DNA of 64,000 bases from a virus, in IMG/VR virus record IMGVR_UViG_3300031949_000014; one strand, given 5' to 3'. Positions 1 through 48,643 of the stretch are shown here, in pieces; position 1 is the stretch's first letter, and the number at the start of each line of letters is the position of its first letter. The translations under genes and the position numbers were made by a program. The notes beneath the pieces were generated by a model. It was not told where the DNA came from and ran no database searches. It saw only the letters and a list, made by a program, of their open reading frames with translations.

Positions 1-2
1 TG

Positions 3-422
3 TCTGCGCTCAAGCGCAAAAACGGTAAGTTGATGCCTGTTGATGTGGTGAAGCGCGCTCGTTCAAAGGCGAGCGCGCTTCACCGTCACTTCGTTTGGGA
101 CGACACCAAAGCCGCGCATGAACACCGACTGTGGCAAGCACGGGAGTTGATCGTGACCGTGCAAGTCGTGTTCGAAGGGACAGAAGGGCGTGAGGTGCAA
201 AAGTACGTGTCTCTAGCACCAGACCGTCAGAAAGGAGGAGGTTACCGCGAATTGAGCGCTGTGCTCACGAGCGCGAAGCTGCGCGCGGAGTTGTTGCAGA
301 CGGCATTCCGCGAGATGGCGTATTTCCGCGCGAAGTACAAATTCTTGCGCGAGCTGGCAGAAGTCTTCGACGCGATGCTCAGGGTAGAGCAGAAGCTCTC
401 GCGCAAGCGCAAAGCAGCTTGA
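3..422 (+). CDS. Conserved phage hypothetical protein, 5'-truncated by the window edge; directly precedes the pentamer array
   Basis: Frame is open from position 3 (SALKRKNGKLMPVDVVKRARSKASALHRHFVWDDTKAAHEHRLWQARELIV). Matches the phage family pattern NGxLxPxxVVxxARxxxSxLHxxFxWDDxxAAxxxRLxQARxLI. Confidence 0.8.
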   Translation, partial: SALKRKNGKLMPVDVVKRARSKASALHRHFVWDDTKAAHEHRLWQARELIVTVQVVFEGTEGREVQKYVSLAPDRQKGGGYRELSAVLTSAKLRAELLQTAFREMAYFRAKYKFLRELAEVFDAMLRVEQKLSRKRKAA

Positions 423-430
423 GGTTTTTA

Positions 431-882
431 GGCACGGCAGCGCAAGGTTTGGCTGGGCGCGACATGGTGTGGCAGGTGTGGCATGACAAGATGAGGCATG
501 GTTCGGCACGGCAGGCTCGGTTCGGTGGGCTAGGCCTGGCATGGGTAGGCACGGCAGGTGTGGTGTGGCAGGGCGTGGTACGGGTTGGTGCGGTTTGGTC
601 CGGCGGGCGCGGCAAGGCATGGTGTGGCACGGTACGGTTGGCGCGGCAGGTTTGGCCCGACGCGGTTTGTAAAGGCAGGGCGCGGTAAGGCACGGCTCGG
701 TGCGGCAGGCTGGGTTAGGCGAGGCACGGTTAGGTGCGGTTTGGTTAGGTATGGCGCGGCAGGTTCGGCGGGGCGCGGCCAGTCATGGTTTGGTAAGGCG
801 TGGCGCGGCAGGCGTGGCGCGGCAGGCGCGGCAGGCGAGGCAAGGCCGGGTATGGTCAGGCGCGGAATGGCGAGGCCGGCAA
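431..882 (+). repeat. Degenerate GGY-NN pentamer array, segmented by GGCA tetramers; candidate guide-type ncRNA (VIPR-like)
   Basis: Manual parse: 80 pentamers (70 begin GGC/GGT) plus 13 tetramers (9 GGCA) = 452 nt. Variable NN positions, no credible ORF. Confidence 0.95.
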
Positions 883-890
883 AGGGTGTG

Positions 891-923
891 GCACCGAGCC
901 CAACATCGGTGCGTTTCTTTCTT
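891..923 (+). terminator. Rho-independent terminator closing the array
   Basis: Stem GCACCGA (891-897)/TCGGTGC (906-912), 8-nt loop, then GTTTCTTTCTT. Confidence 0.8.
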
Positions 924-964
924 GCGCAAGTGAATAGTCCCTGCTACCTCCCGGTCTACCCCTC

Positions 965-3055
965 GTGCCCGCGCCCGCTGCCGCTGTTGAGACCCGCGAA
1001 GCTGTCCTGAAGAGGATCAAATGGGAGCGCCCCGGCAACGCGTGGAAGCTCCTGCAGATGACCAATGGCCAGACCTGGAAGGGCGCCGTCGGTGACGTCC
1101 TGCCGGGTGCATTCTTGAAGGCCGAGGGCGTCGAGGTCACGGACAACTTCGGCCTCGCGTTCGAGGTCAAGACGCTCCTCAGCTCGGTCTTGAAGGGCGC
1201 CGCCGGCGTCGAGGCCTGGATGACGTACCGCATGCCAGAGATCGGCGCTGTTCGTGCCCGCGCCCTGGTCGAGCGTTTCGGCGAGGACCTCGGGGCCACC
1301 ATCTTGAACACGCCTGCGGCGTTGGCGACCGTGCCAGGCATCACGATGGAGCGCGCGACCGCCATCCAGACGGCCTACCTCGGCTACCAGGATGAGCTCG
1401 CTTGGGTGCCGAAGCTCGTCAACAACGGCCTGCAGATGGCCCACGCCCTTGCCACTTTCAAGGCCCACGGCGTCGGCCTCGAGCAGGTCTTGGACACGGA
1501 CCCGTACGTGTTGGTGGACGTCGAGGGGCTCAGTTTCGAGGTCGTGGACGCCCTGGCGCGCCGTCTGGGCATGTCCGAGAAGGACCCCCGCCGCATGCGC
1601 GCCTGGGTGCGCAACATGCTCGAAGAGGACCTCGACGAAGGCCACTGCAACCGGCCGCTGGTCGAGGTCATCGTCGCCATCGCTAAGTGGGGTTTCCCCG
1701 CCCGCGAGGTCATCGACTTGCTGAAGCCCTCGAAGCACCTCTGGATCGAGGAGAAGACCATCTCTCTCGCGCGCATCGCCTACGCCGAGCGCCGGGTCGC
1801 CGCGGGGGTCCGAGGGCTGGTTGAGCAGGGACAGCGCGAGCTGGGCGAGGTCGAGTTGCCCGAGAGCCTCGACGCGTCGCAGAAGGCCGCCGCGCTCGCT
1901 CTCCTGGTCGAGCCCATCGTCGTCATGACCGGCGGGCCGGGCGTGGGCAAGACGCATACGCTCAAGAGCGCCCTGGACGTCATCGAATCCCGCGGCGAGC
2001 GCCCGGTCCTCGCGGCGTTCACCGGCAAGGCCGCCAAGCGCATGTCGGAGGTCACGGGGCGCCCGGCGAGCACGATTCACAAGCTCATCGGTTGGACGCC
2101 GACGGGTTGGAAGTGCGGTCCGGGCGAGCCTATTGCTGCGGACGTCATCGTCATCGACGAGGCCTCGATGGTCGACGTCGAACTCGCCGCGGCGCTCCTC
2201 GACGCCATCGGCGAGGGCACCAGGCTCATTTTGGTGGGCGACGTCGACCAAATACCTCCCGTTGGTCCGGGGCAGCCCTTGGTCGACATCATTCGTTCTG
2301 CGAAGGTTCCGGTGCATACGCTCACGAAGACGCACCGACAGTCGGCGAAAAGTTGGGTCATCGACAACGCTCGACGCATCATCAACGGGGAGGTGCCGAA
2401 CCTCGAGAGCGACGGCAGCTTCGATTTCATGGCGTGCACGGATTCGGACATGATTGTGGCTGTCGTCGTCGCGATGCAGAAGAAGTTCCCGAACGTGCAG
2501 GTCTTGACGCCGGAGCACAAGAAGGGCGCCGGCACCGTTCGCCTAAACAACGAGATTCAGGCTGCCGTCAACCCGCGCTCGAAAGAACAGTGGGCCTCGT
2601 TCATCGAGTCCAACGGCTGCAGGATTTTCGCCGGCGACCGCGTCATCTACACCAGGAACCAGCTCGGCTTGGTCAACGGCGACCTCGGTCTCGTCGAGGA
2701 CGTCGAAGTCATCGGCAACAGGAAGGTCGTCACCGTCCGCTTTGTTGGCGTCGAGAATCCAGATCCTGAGAGCATCGACGGCCTCTTCAAGCTGCAGGAC
2801 GGCAACGTGCGGCCGCTGCAGCTCGCGTACGCGCTGACCGTGCACAAGTTCCAGGGGTCGGAGCACCCCGAGGTCGTGGTCGTCGCCGACGAGGCCCACT
2901 GGAGCTTCCGCCGGCAGCTTCTCTACACCGCGGTCACGCGCACGTCCGACAAGCTCGGCATCGTCGGCTCGCGCGAGGCCGTTGCGCGCGCGGTTGCGAA
3001 GCCCAGGGACACGAATCGCAGGACGAGGTTGGTGGAGAGGATTGGTGGAGCGTGA
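965..3055 (+). CDS. recD2: RecD2-like SF1B helicase
   Basis: HhH (TVPGITMERATAI), Walker A GGPGVGKT, Walker B VIDEASM, LVGDVDQIPPVG, LTKTHRQ, AYALTVHKFQGSE, LLYTAVTR. Confidence 0.93.
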   Translation: MPAPAAAVETREAVLKRIKWERPGNAWKLLQMTNGQTWKGAVGDVLPGAFLKAEGVEVTDNFGLAFEVKTLLSSVLKGAAGVEAWMTYRMPEIGAVRARALVERFGEDLGATILNTPAALATVPGITMERATAIQTAYLGYQDELAWVPKLVNNGLQMAHALATFKAHGVGLEQVLDTDPYVLVDVEGLSFEVVDALARRLGMSEKDPRRMRAWVRNMLEEDLDEGHCNRPLVEVIVAIAKWGFPAREVIDLLKPSKHLWIEEKTISLARIAYAERRVAAGVRGLVEQGQRELGEVELPESLDASQKAAALALLVEPIVVMTGGPGVGKTHTLKSALDVIESRGERPVLAAFTGKAAKRMSEVTGRPASTIHKLIGWTPTGWKCGPGEPIAADVIVIDEASMVDVELAAALLDAIGEGTRLILVGDVDQIPPVGPGQPLVDIIRSAKVPVHTLTKTHRQSAKSWVIDNARRIINGEVPNLESDGSFDFMACTDSDMIVAVVVAMQKKFPNVQVLTPEHKKGAGTVRLNNEIQAAVNPRSKEQWASFIESNGCRIFAGDRVIYTRNQLGLVNGDLGLVEDVEVIGNRKVVTVRFVGVENPDPESIDGLFKLQDGNVRPLQLAYALTVHKFQGSEHPEVVVVADEAHWSFRRQLLYTAVTRTSDKLGIVGSREAVARAVAKPRDTNRRTRLVERIGGA

Positions 3056-21529: not shown

Positions 21530-22075
21530 GTGCGCCTGAACCCCTGGGCGGTTGGAGGGGGCCTCCTGGCTCTCCTCGTGCTCTCCTCCAGGTCCAAAGC
21601 CGCTCTCGCGCCTTCTGGTGGCACGTTCTGGTCCTCCGAGCAGGACCTCGACGCCTTGGCGAGCATGCTCATCGTCGAGACGGGCTTCGTCAGGGACAAG
21701 AACGAGATGGCGCAGATAGTGTTCGTGGCGCTGAACCGCTCCCGAAACCACGGCAAGCCCGTCCGCGACATCGTCGCGCCGTGGCAGCGTAACCCTCTCT
21801 GGAACTCCGGCGCGGACTACAAGAGGCTCTTTGAAGCAGCCAGGAACAACGCTCGCTGGGACGCCGCGCGGGACTTCGCGCAAGCTGTGCTCACTGGAGC
21901 GTACAAGAACCTGGGCGCGACGGCCTTCGTGCACCCCGGCCGCATGCCGGTCCCGCCGTGCGCTGCCTGCACGCCGAAGAGGTGCCTGGTAGCGACATCG
22001 ACCAGCGCGGGAACGAAGTGCATCCCAGACTGGGCTGTAAACGGCCGCGTAATCGGCGGAGCGATGTTCGCGTGA
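21530..22075 (+). CDS. Membrane-anchored SleB/Hydrolase_2-like cell wall hydrolase
   Basis: DLDALASMLIVE...AQIVFVALNR...GATAFVHP. Confidence 0.55.
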   Translation: MRLNPWAVGGGLLALLVLSSRSKAALAPSGGTFWSSEQDLDALASMLIVETGFVRDKNEMAQIVFVALNRSRNHGKPVRDIVAPWQRNPLWNSGADYKRLFEAARNNARWDAARDFAQAVLTGAYKNLGATAFVHPGRMPVPPCAACTPKRCLVATSTSAGTKCIPDWAVNGRVIGGAMFA

Positions 22076-23121
22076 CTTTTCGAATCCCCCTCGCCGCGCC
22101 TGCGCTCCTCGGCAACGAACGCGCGTACGTCGAAGACGCTCTGACCAAGAATCAACTCTCCGGCGGGGAATACGTGAGCCGGTTCGAGACCGCCTTCGCC
22201 GCAAAACTCAAGACGCAGCACGCTATCGCCGTGTCGAGCGGCACGACAGCGCTACATCTGGCACTGCTGGCTCTCGGGGTGAACGCCAAAAGCCGCGTGC
22301 GCGTTCCGACGCTCACCTACGTGGCAACAGCCAACGCAGTGAAGTACTGCGGTGCCGAGGTCGTCTTTGAAGACGTCGACCCGAAAACCTGGGGCATGAT
22401 CGTCAACGGGAAGCAAGCCGAGTTCGCGATCCCGGTGCACCTCTACGGAGTCCCAACGGAAATGCGAAGCCACGAAGGCGGCGTCGTGGAAGATGCAGCC
22501 GAGGCTCTGGGGGCTTCAGATGCTGGCGGAAGAGCAGCCGGGACGATCGGCGAGCTGGGCGTCTTCTCGTTCTACGGCAACAAGATTCTCACCACCGGCG
22601 AGGGCGGCATGGTCGTGACAAACAACGACGAGCTCGCCGCGCGCGTGCGTTTTCTACGCGGGCAAGCCATGGATCCTGAGCGTCGCTACTGGCACACCGA
22701 GGTCGGATACAACTACCGGATGACCAACTTGCAGGCAGCAATCGGCTTGGGCCAGCTTGAGCGCCTCGACGAGCACCTCGGACGACGTCAGGCCATCATC
22801 GACCTGTACCAAGATTGCCTGGGAGGGGTTTTGGAACTGCAGTGTCCGACGTTCGGAACAATCGCGGCGCCTTGGTTGTTCGTCGGGCTCTTGCCTCGCG
22901 GCATCGACCGCGACCTGGTGATGCAAAAGCTCGCGGCGGAAGGCATCGAGAGCCGCCCCGCGTTCCCGTGCGTGCATCAGATGCCGATGTTCAACGTCTC
23001 TGGCTCTTTCCCCGTTGCAGAAGACATCAGCCGCCGCGGCATCTGCCTGCCGACGTTCGCCACGATGTCTGGGGCCCAGGTGGAAGAAGTGTGCGACGCG
23101 CTTGTGAAGAGCCTTCTGTGA
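22072..23121 (+). CDS. DegT/DnrJ/EryC1/StrS sugar aminotransferase (perosamine synthase-like)
   Basis: VSSGTTALHLAL, VVEDAAEALG, FSFYGNKILTTGEGG (PLP Lys), GYNYRMTNLQAAIG. Confidence 0.93.
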   Translation: MTFRIPLAAPALLGNERAYVEDALTKNQLSGGEYVSRFETAFAAKLKTQHAIAVSSGTTALHLALLALGVNAKSRVRVPTLTYVATANAVKYCGAEVVFEDVDPKTWGMIVNGKQAEFAIPVHLYGVPTEMRSHEGGVVEDAAEALGASDAGGRAAGTIGELGVFSFYGNKILTTGEGGMVVTNNDELAARVRFLRGQAMDPERRYWHTEVGYNYRMTNLQAAIGLGQLERLDEHLGRRQAIIDLYQDCLGGVLELQCPTFGTIAAPWLFVGLLPRGIDRDLVMQKLAAEGIESRPAFPCVHQMPMFNVSGSFPVAEDISRRGICLPTFATMSGAQVEEVCDALVKSLL

Positions 23122-24731: not shown

Positions 24732-25355
24732 GTGAGGGTTTCGCACAAGCATAAGTTCTTGTTCTTAGCTAACCTAAAGACAGGTTCTGCAGGTCTCCGA
24801 AATATGCTCGATCCATATTCTGAGCCTCTAAAAAACACTTGGCCTTTGCTTCCAACATCGTATTTAGAGTTGAAACATGAGCACTTACGAGCGCAAGAAG
24901 TCAAGGAATTTTTCGTGTGCAACGGGTGGGATTTTGACAGCTACATGAAGTTCATTGTTGTGCGTAATCCGTGGGCACGGCTTGTTTCGTGCCATGCTGC
25001 TTATGCAAACAGAGGTCAACCTAACCCACCGCGCTTTAGGGAGTGGTTATACAATGTGAAGGTAGATGGTGATCCTGTTCACCCCTCAGGTTATTTTTCG
25101 TGCATGTCTTTGCAACACGTGGCTGGTGATGGATCCGGGCGCTTGTTGGTTGATCACGTATTGAAACTAGAAACGCTGACAACAACACTCCCTCCGCTGC
25201 TCGCCACTGTCGGCATTGCCAATGTCTCAATGCCGCACACCAACAAAACGCCGCACAAACACTATACAAAATTCTACCGTCCACGCGATGTCCAGCACGT
25301 CGCCAATCTGTATGCTGAGGAGATTGAACGCTTCGGCTATGCTTTTGGCCAATGA
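24732..25355 (+). CDS. Sulfotransferase family 2 protein
   Basis: FLFLANLKTGSAGL (5'-PSB), FIVVRNPWARLVS (3'-PB). Confidence 0.85.
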   Translation: MRVSHKHKFLFLANLKTGSAGLRNMLDPYSEPLKNTWPLLPTSYLELKHEHLRAQEVKEFFVCNGWDFDSYMKFIVVRNPWARLVSCHAAYANRGQPNPPRFREWLYNVKVDGDPVHPSGYFSCMSLQHVAGDGSGRLLVDHVLKLETLTTTLPPLLATVGIANVSMPHTNKTPHKHYTKFYRPRDVQHVANLYAEEIERFGYAFGQ

Positions 25356-26089
25356 GTAAAAGGATCATATTAGCATCGGCTTTCAGAAACCTCTCCGGCA
25401 AACGGCTGGTGCGATATCTGTCGCAGGTCTCGGCCTTCATCGCGGAGGGGGGGTTCGAGAGCTACCATCTCATCTGGGCAGAAGGGGATTCGACCGACAC
25501 CACGCTCGAAGAACTTCGAGCGGCTCGAACGACGTTCCAAGACCTCCCCGGCAACGTCACGGTAGACCTCATCGACGTTACGCACGGACGACCTAACTAC
25601 GGCTCCTGCGAGAACCCCGACCGTCTGCGATGCCTATCGCTCGTACTCAACAAGATACTGGACGCCGTTCCGGCCGACGCTGATGCGGTCGTCTATGTAG
25701 AGTCGGACTTGAAGTGGGTGCCGGAGGTCCTCCAGCGCCTGATTTCTCAGTTGCAGTCGCCGATAGACGTGATCAGTCCGCCCACGTTCCATAGACACCC
25801 AAGACGCCCTTCCGACTCGAAACTCCTCTACGACACCTGGGGCTTCCGCACGCTTGAAGGCCGCCGCTACGACCGGCACATGACGCGCCGTTCCTTGCAG
25901 CAAAAAGGACTCAAAGAAATGGGCTCAGTTGGCTCCTGCGTCGCGATGCGCGGCGACGTCGCTCGGCAGTGTCGCGTGTCGAACAACCTAGCTCTCGTTG
26001 GGTGGTGCGAAGCTGTTCGAGGACAAGGCTACCGCATCTGGAGTGATTGGCGTATACACATCAACCATCCAACAACAGCGAGTCCATGA
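25352..26089 (+). CDS. GT-A (GT2-like) glycosyltransferase
   Basis: EGDSTDTT, VVYVESDL (DxD-like), LYDTWGFR. Confidence 0.7.
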   Translation: MSKRIILASAFRNLSGKRLVRYLSQVSAFIAEGGFESYHLIWAEGDSTDTTLEELRAARTTFQDLPGNVTVDLIDVTHGRPNYGSCENPDRLRCLSLVLNKILDAVPADADAVVYVESDLKWVPEVLQRLISQLQSPIDVISPPTFHRHPRRPSDSKLLYDTWGFRTLEGRRYDRHMTRRSLQQKGLKEMGSVGSCVAMRGDVARQCRVSNNLALVGWCEAVRGQGYRIWSDWRIHINHPTTASP

Positions 26090-42036: not shown

Positions 42037-42702
42037 CTACTTCGAGACAGCCGCGCGGACGAGGCCGTGCAAGAAGTTCGTCGCGATGACGGGCTGCTCG
42101 ATGTCGGGGTTCGCGTAGGTGAGACCCACCGAAGCCAGTTGCGTCACGAGCCACTGACGCGCGTCGTAGGTGATGGTCCCGTCCAGTTCGTGGTTCTGGT
42201 TCAGGAGCTGCTTCTTCACCAAGCGAGCGGCCGAGGCCGTCGCCGGCACGCCGACGGAGATGATGCCCGAGTCCACTTCGGTCGACTGACCGTAGAGGCC
42301 ATAGCCCGAAGGGAACTTCACGATCGGACCTTCGTCCTGCAAAATTCCGTTGATGGCGAGACGGTAGAAACCGTTCTCGACGATCTTCTTGACGTCGCGC
42401 GGCACGGTCACCACGTCGCCGGTGGCGAGGCGGAAGTACAGGCCGATGCGATCGAGCACCATCGACTCGCCCGCGGACAGCTTGCGGGGGGTCTTGATGT
42501 TCGTGTCGACGTTGCGCTTGCCCTGCACGTCGTTGAAGAAAGTGAACTCGGTGCCCGCCGTGATTACTCCCGGCAAGACCACGATCGAGTCGTACTTGTC
42601 CGACTCGCGGAAGTCGCGGATGTTGACGATCTCACCGCTCTGGTCGTTCCGGTAGAGACCGGGCTGACCTTCGATCGGCTGCAAAACGGGCACCTGATTC
42701 AT
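42037..42702 (-). CDS. Putative major capsid protein (single jelly-roll)
   Basis: YDS...FTFF...GK..DTN...LSAGESMVLDRIG pattern; strong RBS, double stop, downstream hairpin. Confidence 0.55.
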   Translation of the reverse strand: MNQVPVLQPIEGQPGLYRNDQSGEIVNIRDFRESDKYDSIVVLPGVITAGTEFTFFNDVQGKRNVDTNIKTPRKLSAGESMVLDRIGLYFRLATGDVVTVPRDVKKIVENGFYRLAINGILQDEGPIVKFPSGYGLYGQSTEVDSGIISVGVPATASAARLVKKQLLNQNHELDGTITYDARQWLVTQLASVGLTYANPDIEQPVIATNFLHGLVRAAVSK

Positions 42703-43466: not shown

Positions 43467-45149
43467 TCAAGTCGGAAAGATTCGCGACGCGTCGACCATC
43501 GCCTTCGGAGCTTCCCAACCCACAGGCATGTTGACGGAAGCGTCGAACGAAATCCACTTCTTCGGATTCCTACGCGGGTGACCGACCTGCGCGTAGATGT
43601 GATTCCACTCCGGCGAACCCTTCGTCCTGATGACCTTGAACCGACAAGGTAAACCCAGAGTCGCGGCCGAAGCGCAGGTCAAAACAGAGTAATCATCGCA
43701 GTTGTGAACGATGACATCTTGCTCGGGCAAGTAGAACCTGTGGCTGTCGGTTTCGATGTCGTACACAGGCACGTAGTCGCCCTCGGAAATGCTGCGCACC
43801 TTAGCCCACGGACGAGAGAAATTATCCACCCGAACCGTGACCCGATAGATCGGGTTGAGCCCAAACCCACCGTGCTCAGTCACACGCTTTATGGACGTAC
43901 TTCTGCCGCAGATGCGTTGGAGGATCCTGTACTGGACCGCGAGCAACTTCGACGTCGTAGAGAACACGAAATTCTTACCGCTGGTCGAAAACCCACCGTC
44001 CGCGCTCAAGCCTTCGAGCAGCTTCTCCGCGGTCTGTTTTGACCATCGCGTGTGAGGTAACTGCTTGTGGACAGCCGTGGTGCCGCAACCGGAGAAGAGC
44101 TTTGCTACCGCACCTGGGCCCGCGTCTCCATCTGACAAGTAGATCTCGCGCTCGTGCTCCCGCACAGTGAACCCGAGACTCTTGGCGTGCTTTGCCGCCT
44201 TCTCGCGGATGCCTTTGCCGTTGCATACCCCCGCGATTCCGACGCACGCGAGCGCACCATCCACACGAAACCGACGACGACTTCCCTCGGCCAAATAGGC
44301 CCCTAGAAGAAAAGCCTCGTCGTCGGACAGCTCTTGTGTGTCGGAGAAAGCTGTCTCGCGAGGCTGCAACAAATCGTTGCCCGGCCGCACAGCACTGGCC
44401 AGCACCTCTTCAACCTGTGCGAACCCTCCTGCCCTCCCACTCTGTTGAGGAACGCGGAATAGCTTGTGGCCTTCAGTGCAACGCAACACCGAGCCGTTGT
44501 TCAGTTCCAAATCCAGAGTTGACTGGATTCCCTTGTCCCACCAGTTCGTGACCTTCGCCCAACCTGTGCCGTCGAAGATGACCTCGCCGACCTTGATGTC
44601 TTCGATGGCGACCAAGAGGCCGTCCGCGCGCAAGAGCTGCGTTCCCTCCGGCAAGCAATCCCCAGTGCGCAGCTTCAACGTGTGCCTGGGCGCCTGGTAG
44701 GAATCGATGCCGGCGATGTCGGACGTGTACCGGACGTTCCCGCGGATGGCTTGGAAGAGGGCTTTGATCTCGGCGAGGTTGTCCTTCTCCGGGACACACC
44801 AGTTGGAGCCGCATTTCTTGTTCACCGCGCGGCGCGCGAACTCGTAGACGACGGGGTCTCGCTTGCCTTGCTCGACGAGCTTGCGGAGGTACTCGATGCG
44901 CTCGTCCAAGTTCTTGATCTGGTGGGTCTTCAGCCGAATGTCCCCTGACGGCGTCTTCGCGTGTTGCCCTTCGAAACCTCTGACGTAAGTGCTGGACGAA
45001 GACCGCGCCGAACCTCGTCCCGAAGTACGGCTAGCACGTTGACTCCGTGTCGTGTTTGACGGGGAGCTTAGGTGCCGGGCCCCGACGGAAAGCTGCCGGA
45101 GGCCGAGCACCACGGACGCCAAACCCAGCACGACGTTACCGAGCGCCAC
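43467..45149 (-). CDS. Transglutaminase-like Cys protease interrupted by an intein
   Basis: Spliced RTGD-CDDY; NHIY; FDAS; N-terminal hydrophobic anchor. Confidence 0.85.
   Translation of the reverse strand: MALGNVVLGLASVVLGLRQLSVGARHLSSPSNTTRSQRASRTSGRGSARSSSSTYVRGFEGQHAKTPSGDIRLKTHQIKNLDERIEYLRKLVEQGKRDPVVYEFARRAVNKKCGSNWCVPEKDNLAEIKALFQAIRGNVRYTSDIAGIDSYQAPRHTLKLRTGDCLPEGTQLLRADGLLVAIEDIKVGEVIFDGTGWAKVTNWWDKGIQSTLDLELNNGSVLRCTEGHKLFRVPQQSGRAGGFAQVEEVLASAVRPGNDLLQPRETAFSDTQELSDDEAFLLGAYLAEGSRRRFRVDGALACVGIAGVCNGKGIREKAAKHAKSLGFTVREHEREIYLSDGDAGPGAVAKLFSGCGTTAVHKQLPHTRWSKQTAEKLLEGLSADGGFSTSGKNFVFSTTSKLLAVQYRILQRICGRSTSIKRVTEHGGFGLNPIYRVTVRVDNFSRPWAKVRSISEGDYVPVYDIETDSHRFYLPEQDVIVHNCDDYSVLTCASAATLGLPCRFKVIRTKGSPEWNHIYAQVGHPRRNPKKWISFDASVNMPVGWEAPKAMVDASRIFPT
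43701..44657 (-). mobile_element. 319-aa intein with LAGLIDADG homing endonuclease
   Basis: C1-LPEGTQL, CTEGHKLF (block B), LLGAYLAEGS, LLEGLSADGG, VYDIET, VIVHN then C+1. Confidence 0.93.
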
Positions 45150-45176: not shown

Positions 45177-47318
45177 CTACGCAACGGTGCCGTCATCCGC
45201 GCCTTCCGCGTCGGACGCGGGCGGAGAGATCTCGTTCTCGTCTTCGGGTGTCTCTTGTTCTTCGGCATCCGCTCGCGCCTCGGCGAGCTGTTGCACGTGC
45301 GTGACGAGCTCTTCGAAGTGCGCGTCGACTGCGGCAAACGCCCGTTCCGCGACTTCGTTCTGCAAGAGGTTGCTCTTCACGAGACCGCCGACGAGCTGAC
45401 GCACGTAGCGCAGAGCCACTTCCTTGTTGCCTGTGCTGATCGCGTCGAGCGTCGTGTTCCCGACGCCGCTCCACGGCTCGTAGATGCTCGACAGGTAGAG
45501 CAAGAACTCAACCGTCGCCTCGACAAGCGCGCCGTCGTCTTGCGCGATGATGAAGCCGTTGATGTGCTCGACGATGTTTGGTGGAAGGCCCGGCGTCGCG
45601 GGCGGCTGCATCTTCGCAGCGGCCTCTGGTGTTGCCGTCGCGGGCGGAGGCGTGACGACGGCTGTCGGCGCGGCTGCAACGGTCGCAGGCGGTGTGCCAG
45701 CGGTGAGCCCGAGGCGTGCTTCTTCCTCGGCGAGCTTTCGCTCTTCGATGGCGAGCCTGCGACGCGCAACGTCTGCTGCTCGTGCCTGCACGTCAGCCGG
45801 AATCTGTTGGGGTTGTTGCTGTTGCGGCTGAGGTTGTGACTGCACAACCTTCGCCGTCGCCGTTTGTCCCGACTTCGCGCGGATGAGCCCGGCGACCGAA
45901 CCGACGAGCTCGCGGTTCGAGAGGGCGCCGCCCAAGATGTCGCCCCACATGCTGCCAGCAGAAGGCTCGGTCTGCTGTCGCATCGTGGAGACCGCCTGCA
46001 TGATGCCGGTGAAGTTGTCCATCGACTTCTTGAAATCGTCGGTGCCTTTTTCCCCGCGGAGCTGGTTCACCAGGCCGATGATGTCGGCGGTGGACATGCG
46101 GTCTCGGTTCATCTGCTCGAGCAGAATCGGCGTGAGATTGTCGGCGGGCTTCAAGGCCACGAGCACGGCTGCGATGCCTTGGAGCTGGGCCATCGGGTCC
46201 GGCGGCGTGACCATCGGCGGCATTGGAGCGCTCGAACCTTTGTCGTCGAGCAACTTCGCGAGCAACGTCATCATGACGGGGTCGGCTTCCTTGCGTCCAA
46301 GGATCGACATGAGTTGCATCATGCGTTCTTCGGACTTCTGCTGCTGCTGGGTCATCACCTGCAGCATCGTGGCGGTCTGCTGTCCCATCGCCTGGACCAT
46401 CGCGACGACGGTGTCGCCTTTGCCGGAGCCACCGGAGAGCTTCTCGCTGAAGTCGTGAATCTTGGTGAGCTGCTCGATCGGGTCCGTCGGGTCGTTCTTC
46501 TTCTCCATAATTTCGCGCAGCTCTCGGTCGCGGCGTTGGCCGTCGCGTTCGATCTGCCGCATGAGTAAGTCCCCGAGGCCGCCTTCGCCGCGGCCCCCAC
46601 CGCCGCTATGTCCTCCGTCGGTCGGTTCCACGGTGCCCAGAATGCGGACGACGCCTGCATCCAGACGCTTGCCGTCGGAAGTGATGCCGAAGATTTGATA
46701 GTCCCCCGCCCCGTACTGTGGCTTGGCGTAGCGGTTGAGGAACGAGGCCATGCCCTGCGACTGCGCGAGGTCAGCGGCGTTGTAGTCGCCGACGTAGCCG
46801 AGCTGGCCATTGTCGGAGCGCTTCCAGACTTCGAAGTGCTCGGCGCCGGGGATCTTGTTCCCAAGAATCGTCCCGAGCTTCTTCAACGCCTGTGTCGTGG
46901 CCGGGCGTAGCTCTCGAAGCTCCGGCACTTGCGGAAGCTCTTCTTCCTCCGACGCAGCTACCGCTGCTTTCTGTCCGCGCGGCTTGCGTGTTCTCGGTTG
47001 CGTCTGTGGCGGCGTTGCGGGTCGCGCGAGAGGCGAGGGCGCGGCTGGCGCGGGCGTTTCGTCCGAGAGATCTTCCGACGGCGCTTCTTCGCCCGTCGAC
47101 GACGGCTGCTCGTCTTCACCTTCACCTCGGACCTCCTCTTCGTCAGACGGATCTTCCGCCGGCGCCTCTTCGACCACTGCCGCACGAGCGACACGACGCG
47201 CGCTCCCGCGCTCTTCGAGCTCGCTGAGGTCGAGATTCGGCGGCGCGGCGGGCGCCTTCTTCGTGCGCGTGCGGGTGCGAGGGGCCTCGGTCGTCACGGT
47301 GTCGGCTTCAAGCGTCAT
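45177..47318 (-). CDS. Large low-complexity hypothetical protein (713 aa)
   Basis: AGGAG RBS inside the recombinase 3' end; acidic/Pro-rich N-terminus and Gln/Met-rich middle. Confidence 0.75.
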   Translation of the reverse strand: MTLEADTVTTEAPRTRTRTKKAPAAPPNLDLSELEERGSARRVARAAVVEEAPAEDPSDEEEVRGEGEDEQPSSTGEEAPSEDLSDETPAPAAPSPLARPATPPQTQPRTRKPRGQKAAVAASEEEELPQVPELRELRPATTQALKKLGTILGNKIPGAEHFEVWKRSDNGQLGYVGDYNAADLAQSQGMASFLNRYAKPQYGAGDYQIFGITSDGKRLDAGVVRILGTVEPTDGGHSGGGGRGEGGLGDLLMRQIERDGQRRDRELREIMEKKNDPTDPIEQLTKIHDFSEKLSGGSGKGDTVVAMVQAMGQQTATMLQVMTQQQQKSEERMMQLMSILGRKEADPVMMTLLAKLLDDKGSSAPMPPMVTPPDPMAQLQGIAAVLVALKPADNLTPILLEQMNRDRMSTADIIGLVNQLRGEKGTDDFKKSMDNFTGIMQAVSTMRQQTEPSAGSMWGDILGGALSNRELVGSVAGLIRAKSGQTATAKVVQSQPQPQQQQPQQIPADVQARAADVARRRLAIEERKLAEEEARLGLTAGTPPATVAAAPTAVVTPPPATATPEAAAKMQPPATPGLPPNIVEHINGFIIAQDDGALVEATVEFLLYLSSIYEPWSGVGNTTLDAISTGNKEVALRYVRQLVGGLVKSNLLQNEVAERAFAAVDAHFEELVTHVQQLAEARADAEEQETPEDENEISPPASDAEGADDGTVA

Positions 47319-48189
47319 CGGTCTCTCCTTGGGCTCTGCCCACTGCGGCAACGATTTCGTCTTCACCGATTGCCAGGTAGTGCCGCATCAGCGTGCTGAC
47401 GTCGGCGTGCCCGGCGAGCTTGGCGAGGACGATCGGGTCCACGCCCTTCTTGTAGAGGTTAGTGAGGTAAGTCCGCCTGAACGTGTGCGGAGTGAACTCC
47501 TGCCCATCGTCGCGCAGGCTCGAGACAGCAACGCGCAGCGTGTGCCCCGCTATGTGGCCCTTTTGGCGCCCAGGGAAGAGCCAGCGCTTGTCTGGGAGCT
47601 TCTTTCGCCAGCCGAGGTACTCGTGCAAGACTTCGATGCCCTCGAGCAGGGGGACCACGCGCTGGTGCCCGCCTTTACCTTCGACCTTCAGGCAGTACAC
47701 CTCGCGCCGTCCGTCTTTGAACTTCACCGGCACGCGCTTGAGACAGTGGTACGAGAGCGTCACGACCTCGCCGGAGCGCAGGCCCGTGTACGGCAAGAGC
47801 ATCGCCGCGGTGCGCGTTGGCTCGCCGAGGCGGTCTTCCGCGGCCTCCAGATACGCCTCGAGGTCCTCGTCGCTCAAGACCTCGCGCACGCGGCGCACGA
47901 CGCGCAGCTTCTCCGGCGCGTGTAGCTCCGGCACGTCGATGCCCTGGAGCTTGAGCCAGCGCACGTAGCGCCGCACGCCCGCGACTTTCACATTCACGGT
48001 CGAGGGCGAGCATCCGTCGGCCAGGAGCATCGAGCAGTAGTCCGACAGCACGTTGGGCGAGACCTTCGTGATGTCGCGCACGTCGGTCTCTTCGAGCCAG
48101 CGATAGAAGCGCCCTACCGCGTAGTAATACTGGTACGCGGTCTCCTCGCGACGCACGGACTTCATGTGCTCTAGAAACTTCGTGCTCAT
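47308..48189 (-). CDS. Tyrosine recombinase/integrase (XerC/D-like)
   Basis: YTGLRSGEV, KGKGGHQR, TPHTFRRT, LAGHADVSTLMRHY. Confidence 0.92.
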   Translation of the reverse strand: MSTKFLEHMKSVRREETAYQYYYAVGRFYRWLEETDVRDITKVSPNVLSDYCSMLLADGCSPSTVNVKVAGVRRYVRWLKLQGIDVPELHAPEKLRVVRRVREVLSDEDLEAYLEAAEDRLGEPTRTAAMLLPYTGLRSGEVVTLSYHCLKRVPVKFKDGRREVYCLKVEGKGGHQRVVPLLEGIEVLHEYLGWRKKLPDKRWLFPGRQKGHIAGHTLRVAVSSLRDDGQEFTPHTFRRTYLTNLYKKGVDPIVLAKLAGHADVSTLMRHYLAIGEDEIVAAVGRAQGETDDA

Positions 48190-48643
48190 TACTGCCGAAG
48201 TTGCACTCGTCGTTACGCTCTGCACGAAGAGGACTTTTGCCGAAAAAAACGCAGATGTCGATCTCGGAAGTTACGTTGTACTTACGTCTTAGGTTCACGC
48301 TCGGTTTCTCAACGTACTGGTTCTTCTGCGGACGTTGAGCGGCGAAAGTACGGACAGAAGTGCAACGGCGACGGCGAAAACGGACCGGCGTTGACGTTCT
48401 CGCGCGTTCGTGTTATCGCGATAGCGCTACGCGCACGACGCGGTTCACTGCACCGCAAGTGGTGGCAATGCGCGCCACGGTGCCGCCGACGGTGACGACG
48501 AAGCGCGCGCCGGGCTCGCGCGGAAGTGTTGGTGGTGTTCAGTGACGGTGCGCGCCGTCGTTTTCGCGCCGCGACTCTTGAAGGATCGCGCAGGTAAGCG
48601 TAGGGTTTGACTCAGCGACGCCCACCGTCGCGGAAGAGGCGAG

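Follow-up and report, generated by a model that had tools for sequence, protein, structure and literature searches.

The question raised by this locus is whether a tract of pentamers of the form GGY-NN encodes a protein, serves as a structural element of the DNA or specifies a set of guide RNAs. The tract is present near the left end of the IMG/VR virus record IMGVR_UViG_3300031949_000014, of which a stretch of 64,000 nucleotides was analysed (termed the window). Positions 431–890 of the plus strand contain 86 GGY triplets, and 60 successive pairs of these are at a spacing of exactly 5 nt. The number expected from 2000 first-order Markov simulations of equal composition is 5.5 ± 2.4 with a maximum of 15. 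Parsing of the tract with tracking of the phase gives 94 units, 85 of which start with GGC or GGT. A preliminary description of this DNA had parsed the tract differently and counted 70 such starts in 80 units; the picture is the same and the observation is confirmed. Pentamer positions 1–2 are invariant G and position 3 is C or T (53 and 32, respectively), while positions 4–5 have entropies of 1.84 and 1.96 bits and display all 16 of the 16 dinucleotides. The register slips 15 times within the array, and the strand is 48% G. A second GGY-NN tract is not found elsewhere on either strand of the 64-kb window. A tandem repeat scan of window positions 1–3000 shows pentamer-derived periods only and no CRISPR repeat-spacer array. 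Positions 300–1100 have no match to Rfam families and thus contain no hammerhead.

Three mechanically defined open reading frames overlap the tract (positions 419–688, 558–1010 and 700–933), and one of these, e.g. 419–688 or 558–1010, might be read as encoding a glycine-rich protein. Arrays of this type have in fact been annotated as hypothetical proteins in two phages (UmaThurman gp40 and Pippy gp47). However repeats every 5 nt are out of step with 3-nt codons, and together with the 15 slips this excludes coding. In addition, no gene is called across the tract in the annotation of the public contig ERZ27256953 k141_3507869, and it is the nucleotide motif that is conserved, not the reading frame. 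A glycine-rich product is barely conceivable, in keeping with the initial view that the pattern does not fit a protein. The open frames stem from a G-rich sequence whose 5-nt period is broken by slips.

VIPR is a phage system of RNA-guided DNA silencing that was reported in 2026 (bioRxiv 10.64898/2026.04.26.720920, 10.64898/2026.04.26.720927, 10.64898/2026.10.15.759431). As published, such a system combines Vipr, a minimal RAMP with an RRM core, a G-loop and a thumb, with the product of an accessory gene (vap) and with vrRNAs of 9–16 GGY/NN pentamers. The NN pairs read dsDNA with one skipped base, and the natural targets are in competing phages and satellites. Seven types and several architectures are distinguished, including the "staggered arrays with overlapping vrRNAs" of the discovery paper (10.64898/2026.04.26.720920), in which neighbours share 1 nt. 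The architectures given in the text of that paper as confirmed by sRNA-seq are the ribozyme-interspersed and single-vrRNA ones only, and the staggered one is not listed with them (10.64898/2026.04.26.720920). The VIPR architecture outlined in the preliminary description agrees with the published papers, and its reading of the tract as a VIPR-like guide locus is supported by an adjacent Vipr, the grammar of the array, synteny and the target of one guide. Window positions 431–884 are very probably an array of VIPR vrRNAs; the system forms an accessory cassette of about 1.7 kb in a soil virus with integrases. The features of the locus are collected in Table 1.

Table 1. Features of the putative VIPR locus and the adjacent helicase gene (window coordinates; position 1 is the first nucleotide of the 64,000-nt window)
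Feature	Positions	Strand	Remarks
Accessory gene, 3′ 139 codons in the window	3..422	+	phrog_15946, PHROG match E 1e-19
Small hairpin across the accessory gene stop	404..421	+	Terminator-like pattern, L004 9440–9457
Leader GGTTTTTA, directly before the first guide	423..430	+	GGTTTTT kept in relatives L099 and L100
Putative staggered vrRNA array, GGY-NN pentamers with 4-nt GGCA units directly before GG	431..884	+	About 85 GGY-NN units
Guide g1, 9 units, internal degenerate units, ends ...GGCA	431..474	+	
Guide g2, 8 units, internal degenerate units, ends ...GGCA	475..513	+	
Irregular stretch, several +1/−1 register slips and short runs	514..648	+	
Guide g5, 12 units	649..707	+	3′ half common to an L099 guide
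Guide g6, 11 perfect GGY-NN units, 9 variable plus terminal GGCGC GGCA	708..761	+	
Guide g7, 10 units	762..810	+	Letter-identical to L099 2229–2277
Two remnants, terminal motif only	811..824, 825..833	+	
Last guide, g10	834..877	+	
Conserved trailer GGCAAAG	878..884	+	
Intrinsic-terminator-like hairpin (891–912) and T-tract (913–923)	891..923	+	Terminator scan, centroid fold
RecD2-like SF1 helicase	965..3055	+	Pfam AAA_30, AAA_19, HHH_RecD2, UvrD_C_2; phrog_4412
Own copy of the g6 site	1364..1389	−	Codons I-Q-T-A-Y-L-G-Y-Q; g6 match 13/18

The left flank of the window was obtained from the ENA contig ERZ27256953 k141_3507869 (termed L004), which was reached by an exact-protein look-up of the downstream helicase. 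The 13,055 bases common to L004 and the window agree without exception, and the L004 position equals the window position plus 9036. The window was not found in the INPHARED phage collection, nor by exact pattern in IMG/VR. An open reading frame of 216 amino acids (P0005) is at L004:8359–9009 and ends 27 nt to the left of window position 1. The vipr gene described here is therefore that of the identical public contig and not that of the window's record itself; the latter extends beyond the right end of this contig. A wrap-around of the ENA contig, i.e. a circular permutation, was considered as the origin of the window and rejected. A tyrosine integrase is found at window positions 47308–48225 (minus strand), where the 68,966-bp ENA contig would end (about window position 47,415). 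The window continues 16 kb past this end, thus its record is longer or is joined differently.

P0005 does not match a family in a Pfam search. Its best PDB sequence match is 36pp, the "SUSP1 Vipr protein", with an E-value of 0.39 for the single sequence; with the profile of the P0005 family (50 sequences), 36pp is again the best match at E = 2e-5. Direct comparison with the SUSP1 Vipr, which was located in KT454805 between its two arrays, gives a 95% probability and E = 3.5e-8 by hhalign, and E = 2e-6 by BLASTP over the thumb and G-loop. The two families are linked by gp39 of Gordonia phage UmaThurman, which aligns with the SUSP1 Vipr over residues 4–189 (E = 1e-10) and also with P0005 (E = 4e-10). 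The AlphaFold (AF2) model of P0005 has a pLDDT of 91.2 and a pTM of 0.85, and the best 50 Foldseek PDB matches of this model are all RAMP/Cas7-family complexes (best E = 5e-5), with Csm (type III-A), Cmr, type III-D/III-E and type VII among them.

Residues with roles assigned in the published SUSP1 work are largely retained. The thumb arginine (R138 in SUSP1) is R151 here, the acid of the G-loop (D177) is E190 and the G-loop arginine (R179) is R192; all are conserved or invariant in the P0005 family. W178 of SUSP1, which provides aromatic stacking on G2, is a glycine in the P0005 family. P0005 keeps every residue that is invariant in its family. A RAMP/Cas7-like gene, which had been proposed as the thing to look for on extension to the left, is thus present as P0005, with a Cas7-like predicted fold and profile homology to the SUSP1 Vipr. 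These comparisons of sequence and of a predicted structure support the assignment of P0005 as a Vipr, i.e. a minimal RAMP.

The gene between vipr and the array begins 30 nt to the left of the window and encodes a protein of 150 aa (P0006, L004:9006–9458). It overlaps the stop of the upstream vipr by 4 nt. The AF2 model of P0006 has a pLDDT of 91, yet a search of the PDB gives no significant match of fold or sequence and a Pfam search gives no family. The neighbours that AFDB and the Atlas give for P0006 are, without exception, uncharacterised proteins of viruses. BLASTP and hhalign show no similarity between P0006 and SUSP1 Vap1, and no relatives were found in IMG/VR by peptide patterns. A winged-helix identity (MarR, FUR, Rep3) was considered and rejected, with rows at E > 2 and TM < 0.4. 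DNA binding by P0006 is a guess, since these winged-helix rows are at noise level. A 19-pair inverted repeat was detected by the terminator scan inside the accessory coding region, at window positions 45–86 (L004 9081–9122).

The register slips of the array are not random. Most are 4-nt units of sequence GGCA located right before GG, and GGCRC usually precedes them. The same mark is found in the arrays of 80 related loci, where GGCA accounts for 327 of 376 4-nt steps and the distance from one step to the next is 44, 49, 54 or 59 nt, i.e. 9–12 units. Divided at these marks, the window array has guides of 8–12 pentamers each, five or six of which are well formed, and the stretch at 514–648 probably consists of recombined or decayed guides. 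Judged by sequence, this architecture is the published "staggered" type, in which the G after GGCA would be common to two units.

The array is followed by the hairpin GCACCGA-8 nt-TCGGTGC and then GTTTCTTTCT. The hairpin was found by the terminator scan and is also present in the centroid fold, in agreement with the 7-bp hairpin and U-tract that had been pointed out between the tract and the helicase gene; its energy is unexceptional relative to shuffles (z = −0.28). Positions 891–923 appear to be a transcription terminator, at which transcripts of the array would end. A related locus, L099 (Logan), encodes Vipr and accessory proteins about 95% identical to those described here and has the same leader, trailer and terminator. 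Its hairpin and T-tract are letter-identical to those of the window, although the guides differ. The L099 array has 12 clean guides of 8–10 units each. One is g7, one (r3) has the NN string of g1 and one has the 3′ half of g5; the rest are different. Thus guide content turns over, while the frame in which the guides are set is fixed.

The P0005 family has at least 368 proteins and is found at 536 loci in IMG/VR, of which 80 viral loci were fetched for counts of synteny. A GGY-NN array is present on the same strand within 1.5 kb of vipr at 73 of the 80 loci and on the opposite strand at one. A P0006-like gene on the same strand is within 2.5 kb of vipr at 68 of the 80. The module is also found in cultured viruses, i.e. 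Mycobacterium phage Pippy (array, gp48, gp49), Gordonia phages UmaThurman (gp39, array, gp41) and Ecliptus (gp19, array, gp20), and cyanophage Cy-LDV1. In GenBank, the UmaThurman array is annotated as gp40 (L001:2630–2931) and the Pippy array as gp47 (L104:1459–1682), both as hypothetical proteins. Their neighbours are Vipr homologues by the family profile (UmaThurman gp39, E = 3e-29; Pippy gp48, E = 4e-37).

These counts also bear on the possibility that the tract is a structural DNA element, such as a G-quadruplex tract, a recombination hotspot or a replication signal beside the helicase gene. The strong G bias and the replication helicase immediately downstream are what such an element might show. 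Nevertheless the array accompanies a RAMP gene on the same strand at 73 of the 80 loci and never the RecD2-like helicase, the GGY is conserved while the NN is near-random, the units are discretely punctuated, and NN-x matches fall in the wobble phase of rival genes (see below). A structural element is highly improbable. For the same reason the RecD2-like helicase was rejected as a VIPR accessory: it is absent from all 80 loci, and is thus a neighbour in the viral backbone and not a conserved VIPR component.

The boundaries of the VIPR cassette are displayed by a sibling virus, L101 (JGI 3300037483), which is syntenic but has no vipr, accessory gene or array. Alignment with L101 places the cassette at L004 8254–9948, about 1.7 kb, with its right edge at window position 912, the foot of the hairpin; homology resumes at 913. 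In place of the cassette, the slot upstream of the L101 helicase (L101:9243–9948) has approximately 700 bp of unrelated sequence, and the helicase gene adjoins this cassette-free site. Because a VIPR-less sibling has other sequence in the same slot, the module is a swappable cassette of approximately 1.7 kb. On the VIPR-less sibling contig (L102:1–3260) there are genes for DNA polymerase A and ThyX and a dGTP diphosphohydrolase-like gene. Such genes of nucleotide metabolism are a possible hint that the DNA of these viruses is modified.

The NN pairs of g6 match the gene of the RecD2-like helicase in two siblings, at one homologous site. At L101 10400–10425 (minus strand), 17 of 18 NN positions agree and the site encodes the peptide IQKAYVSYQ; none of 300 shuffles of unit order reach this score. 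At L099 2813–2838 the match is 16 of 18, the peptide is IQKAYLSYQ and none of 3000 shuffles reach the score. The match is antisense to the gene and every skipped base is at codon position 3, i.e. the wobble position. The window's own copy of the site, at 13 of 18, falls under the cut-off of at least 80% NN match that was used in the discovery paper (10.64898/2026.04.26.720920). Its extra mismatches relative to L101 are due to three amino acid differences (K to T, V to L and S to G). Because L101, L099 and the window have homologous copies of the site, the matches count as one event. The chance of such a match is estimated at about 0.03 under a uniform base model, corrected for about 1 Mb and about 19 guides; with composition bias it is somewhat higher. 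Overall, with correction for everything scanned, chance is put at a few percent. The helicase gene of the two sibling viruses is a convincing predicted target of g6, with avoidance of self, and is the sole convincing one for the window.

A second example is found elsewhere in the P0005 family. A guide in L032 (L032:4841–4885) matches 16 of 16 NN positions at the 5′ end of three vipr genes of rivals (L030:2168, L039:2743 and L070:757), in frame and with the skips on the wobble positions. The three sites encode I-K-P-A-N-I-Q-T and differ from one another at wobble sites. The vipr of L032 itself (IRPANIQT) matches its guide at only 14 of 16. This looks like anti-VIPR targeting with avoidance of self, and mirrors the vipr-targeting guides published for SUSP1 relatives. 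The last two units of the L032 guide do not pair at the target; the terminal two units were therefore dropped from the search patterns of the window guides.

Other searches for targets gave little. Six window guides compared with 757 kb (self and local sequences) had scores at noise level at skips of 0, 1 and 2, and a skip of 3 returned the array itself alone. Against the same set, 348 family guides showed no bulk enrichment under any skip rule, the perfect L032 match being the exception. Neither g6 (as patterns of 20 and 18 specified bases) nor g5 had an exact match in IMG/VR, and the 20-base g6 pattern had none in JGI metagenomes. The 18-base g6 pattern gave 14 JGI matches, all in contigs of 31–48% GC; none of these could be lengthened and no second guide pointed to the same places, and they were rejected as chance. 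The window and L099 guides found nothing in the rest of the L101 contig or in L103. One of about seven testable window guides therefore has a target. The expectation that the NN pairs would find gapped matches is borne out for g6 in the sibling helicases; for the other guides these searches found none.

The shortage of targets is one feature that would be expected if the array were decaying or orphaned, i.e. nonfunctional here, or a set of mere solo guides that exploit Vipr proteins encoded by other viruses. The register slips at 514–648 and the terminal-motif remnants at 811–833 have the same implication, and the 2026 VIPR papers document relatives of SUSP1 that have no vipr but carry solo vrRNAs. 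However an intact vipr and accessory gene are directly upstream in the identical contig, this vipr keeps all family-invariant residues, and five or six guides are well formed, including one with a self-avoiding sibling target. A decaying or orphan array appears improbable.

A functional VIPR cassette would operate as follows. Its order would be vipr (216 aa), accessory gene (150 aa), array and terminator. The array would be transcribed rightward, either as part of a common transcript of all three elements or with a start at the leader, and transcription would stop at the hairpin and T-tract. Of the sequencing runs listed for this sequence none is recorded as RNA, and the sole run with the full sequence (X1) is a soil metagenome, possibly the source sample. 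Processing would yield approximately 7–10 short vrRNAs of 8–12 pentamers with boundaries at GGCA, the next G serving both units. By analogy with the published SUSP1 structures, Vipr would load as one protomer per pentamer, with the GGY held and the NN presented, and the NN pairs would read dsDNA as NN-x-NN-x. The last two units (GGYRY GGCA) may be a constant 3′ handle and not guide, as suggested by the one perfect family example and by g6. Binding would silence genes of competing relatives, with repression as in the published SUSP1 work. The g6 vrRNA would fit the RecD2-like helicase gene of two siblings, one of them cassette-free, and would fit the carrier's own helicase poorly.

A tentative proposal concerns the punctuation. 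GGCA is possibly a built-in ruler that stops each Vipr filament, with host RNases trimming the junction and the last two units acting as the handle. The −1 register break would put neighbouring filaments out of phase and leave the junction exposed. If this is true, no ribozyme, structured tail or Cas6-like nuclease would be needed to form vrRNAs of unit length.

Several other features of the window concern the carrier virus. Ten of the larger open reading frames have no match to tail, portal or terminase families. The open reading frame at 42037–42702 (minus strand) encodes a 221-aa beta-rich protein, for which the nearest named Atlas clusters are PRD1-type P2/P3 with a sub-threshold score of 0.77. 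The VIPR module is also found in tailed actinophages. If the carrier is a tailless PRD1-like virus, a tailless nature having been suggested in the preliminary description, VIPR would extend beyond tailed phages. The 560-aa open reading frame at 43467–45149 (minus strand) has a transglutaminase-like core together with intein splicing and LAGLIDADG matches, and is thus an intein-containing gene. A DegT/DnrJ/EryC1 sugar aminotransferase is at 21958–23121 (plus strand, E = 4e-93), and a weak mannosyltransferase-like match (CAP59_mtransfer, E = 4.7e-5, below the Pfam cut-off) is at 25352–26089 (plus strand).

VIPR was described only in 2026, and the discovery paper mentions staggered arrays without RNA data. 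The present locus and its relatives add a sequence grammar for staggered arrays, i.e. a punctuation mark, a ladder of unit lengths and a putative non-pairing handle. They also provide a candidate pair of guide and natural target in sibling viruses that are nearly identical but of which only one has the cassette, and apparent self-avoidance by amino acid changes in the carrier's own helicase. Cultured carriers of the module, phages of Mycobacterium smegmatis and Gordonia terrae, are tractable and make direct tests possible. For annotation, arrays such as UmaThurman gp40 and Pippy gp47 are currently called hypothetical proteins.

The locus belongs to a known and very recently described kind, VIPR. 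A Vipr gene lies beside the RNA locus, the array has GGY units with hypervariable NN in guides of 8–12 pentamers, and an adjacent accessory (vap) gene is found at 68 of 80 loci. The context is not that of CRISPR, as the genes called in the 22-kb locus include no member of a Cas family. Recognition of the NN-x type is indicated by sequence matches of one window guide (g6) and the L032 family guide. The carrier is viral or proviral, with integrases, a repressor-like HTH and phage-family matches.

Class 1 CRISPR-Cas systems, in which Cas7, Csm3 or Cmr4 form a filament on the crRNA, are similar in the predicted fold of P0005, in one protomer per short RNA period and in a base-flipping thumb. The locus differs in its lack of a repeat-spacer array and of cas genes over 22 kb, in a period of 5 nt compared with 6 nt and in a gapped target code. 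Membership in class 1 was rejected, as the Cas7-like fold alone is in common.

The type II VIPR of Escherichia phage SUSP1 (vipr ALH47069, vap1 ALH47068, PDB 36pp) is closer. Its gene order is the same, vipr followed by a small accessory gene and a downstream array. The C-terminal half of Vipr is homologous, with a conserved thumb arginine and the G-loop acid and arginine. Guide lengths are similar, and the targets are competing elements with a weaker match to self. Unlike the SUSP1 vrRNAs, which are separate units of about 100 nt with an invariant pseudoknot tail, the window guides abut and are tailless. The accessory protein has no detectable similarity to Vap1, the G2-stacking tryptophan is replaced by glycine, and the predicted target is a replication helicase of siblings and not a satellite. 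The absence of a 3′ tail and of Vap1 indicates that the array is not type II.

The closest likeness is to the staggered VIPR arrays (10.64898/2026.04.26.720920, fig. S18). These are virus-borne and have a minimal RAMP, an accessory gene and GGY/NN pentamers, as here. Neighbouring vrRNAs share one nucleotide, here read as GGCA[G]GNNN, and the rule of a 1-nt skip fits. Beyond the staggered arrays as described in that paper, the present locus and its relatives display a punctuation logo, a ladder of 44, 49, 54 and 59 nt and apparently non-pairing last two units.
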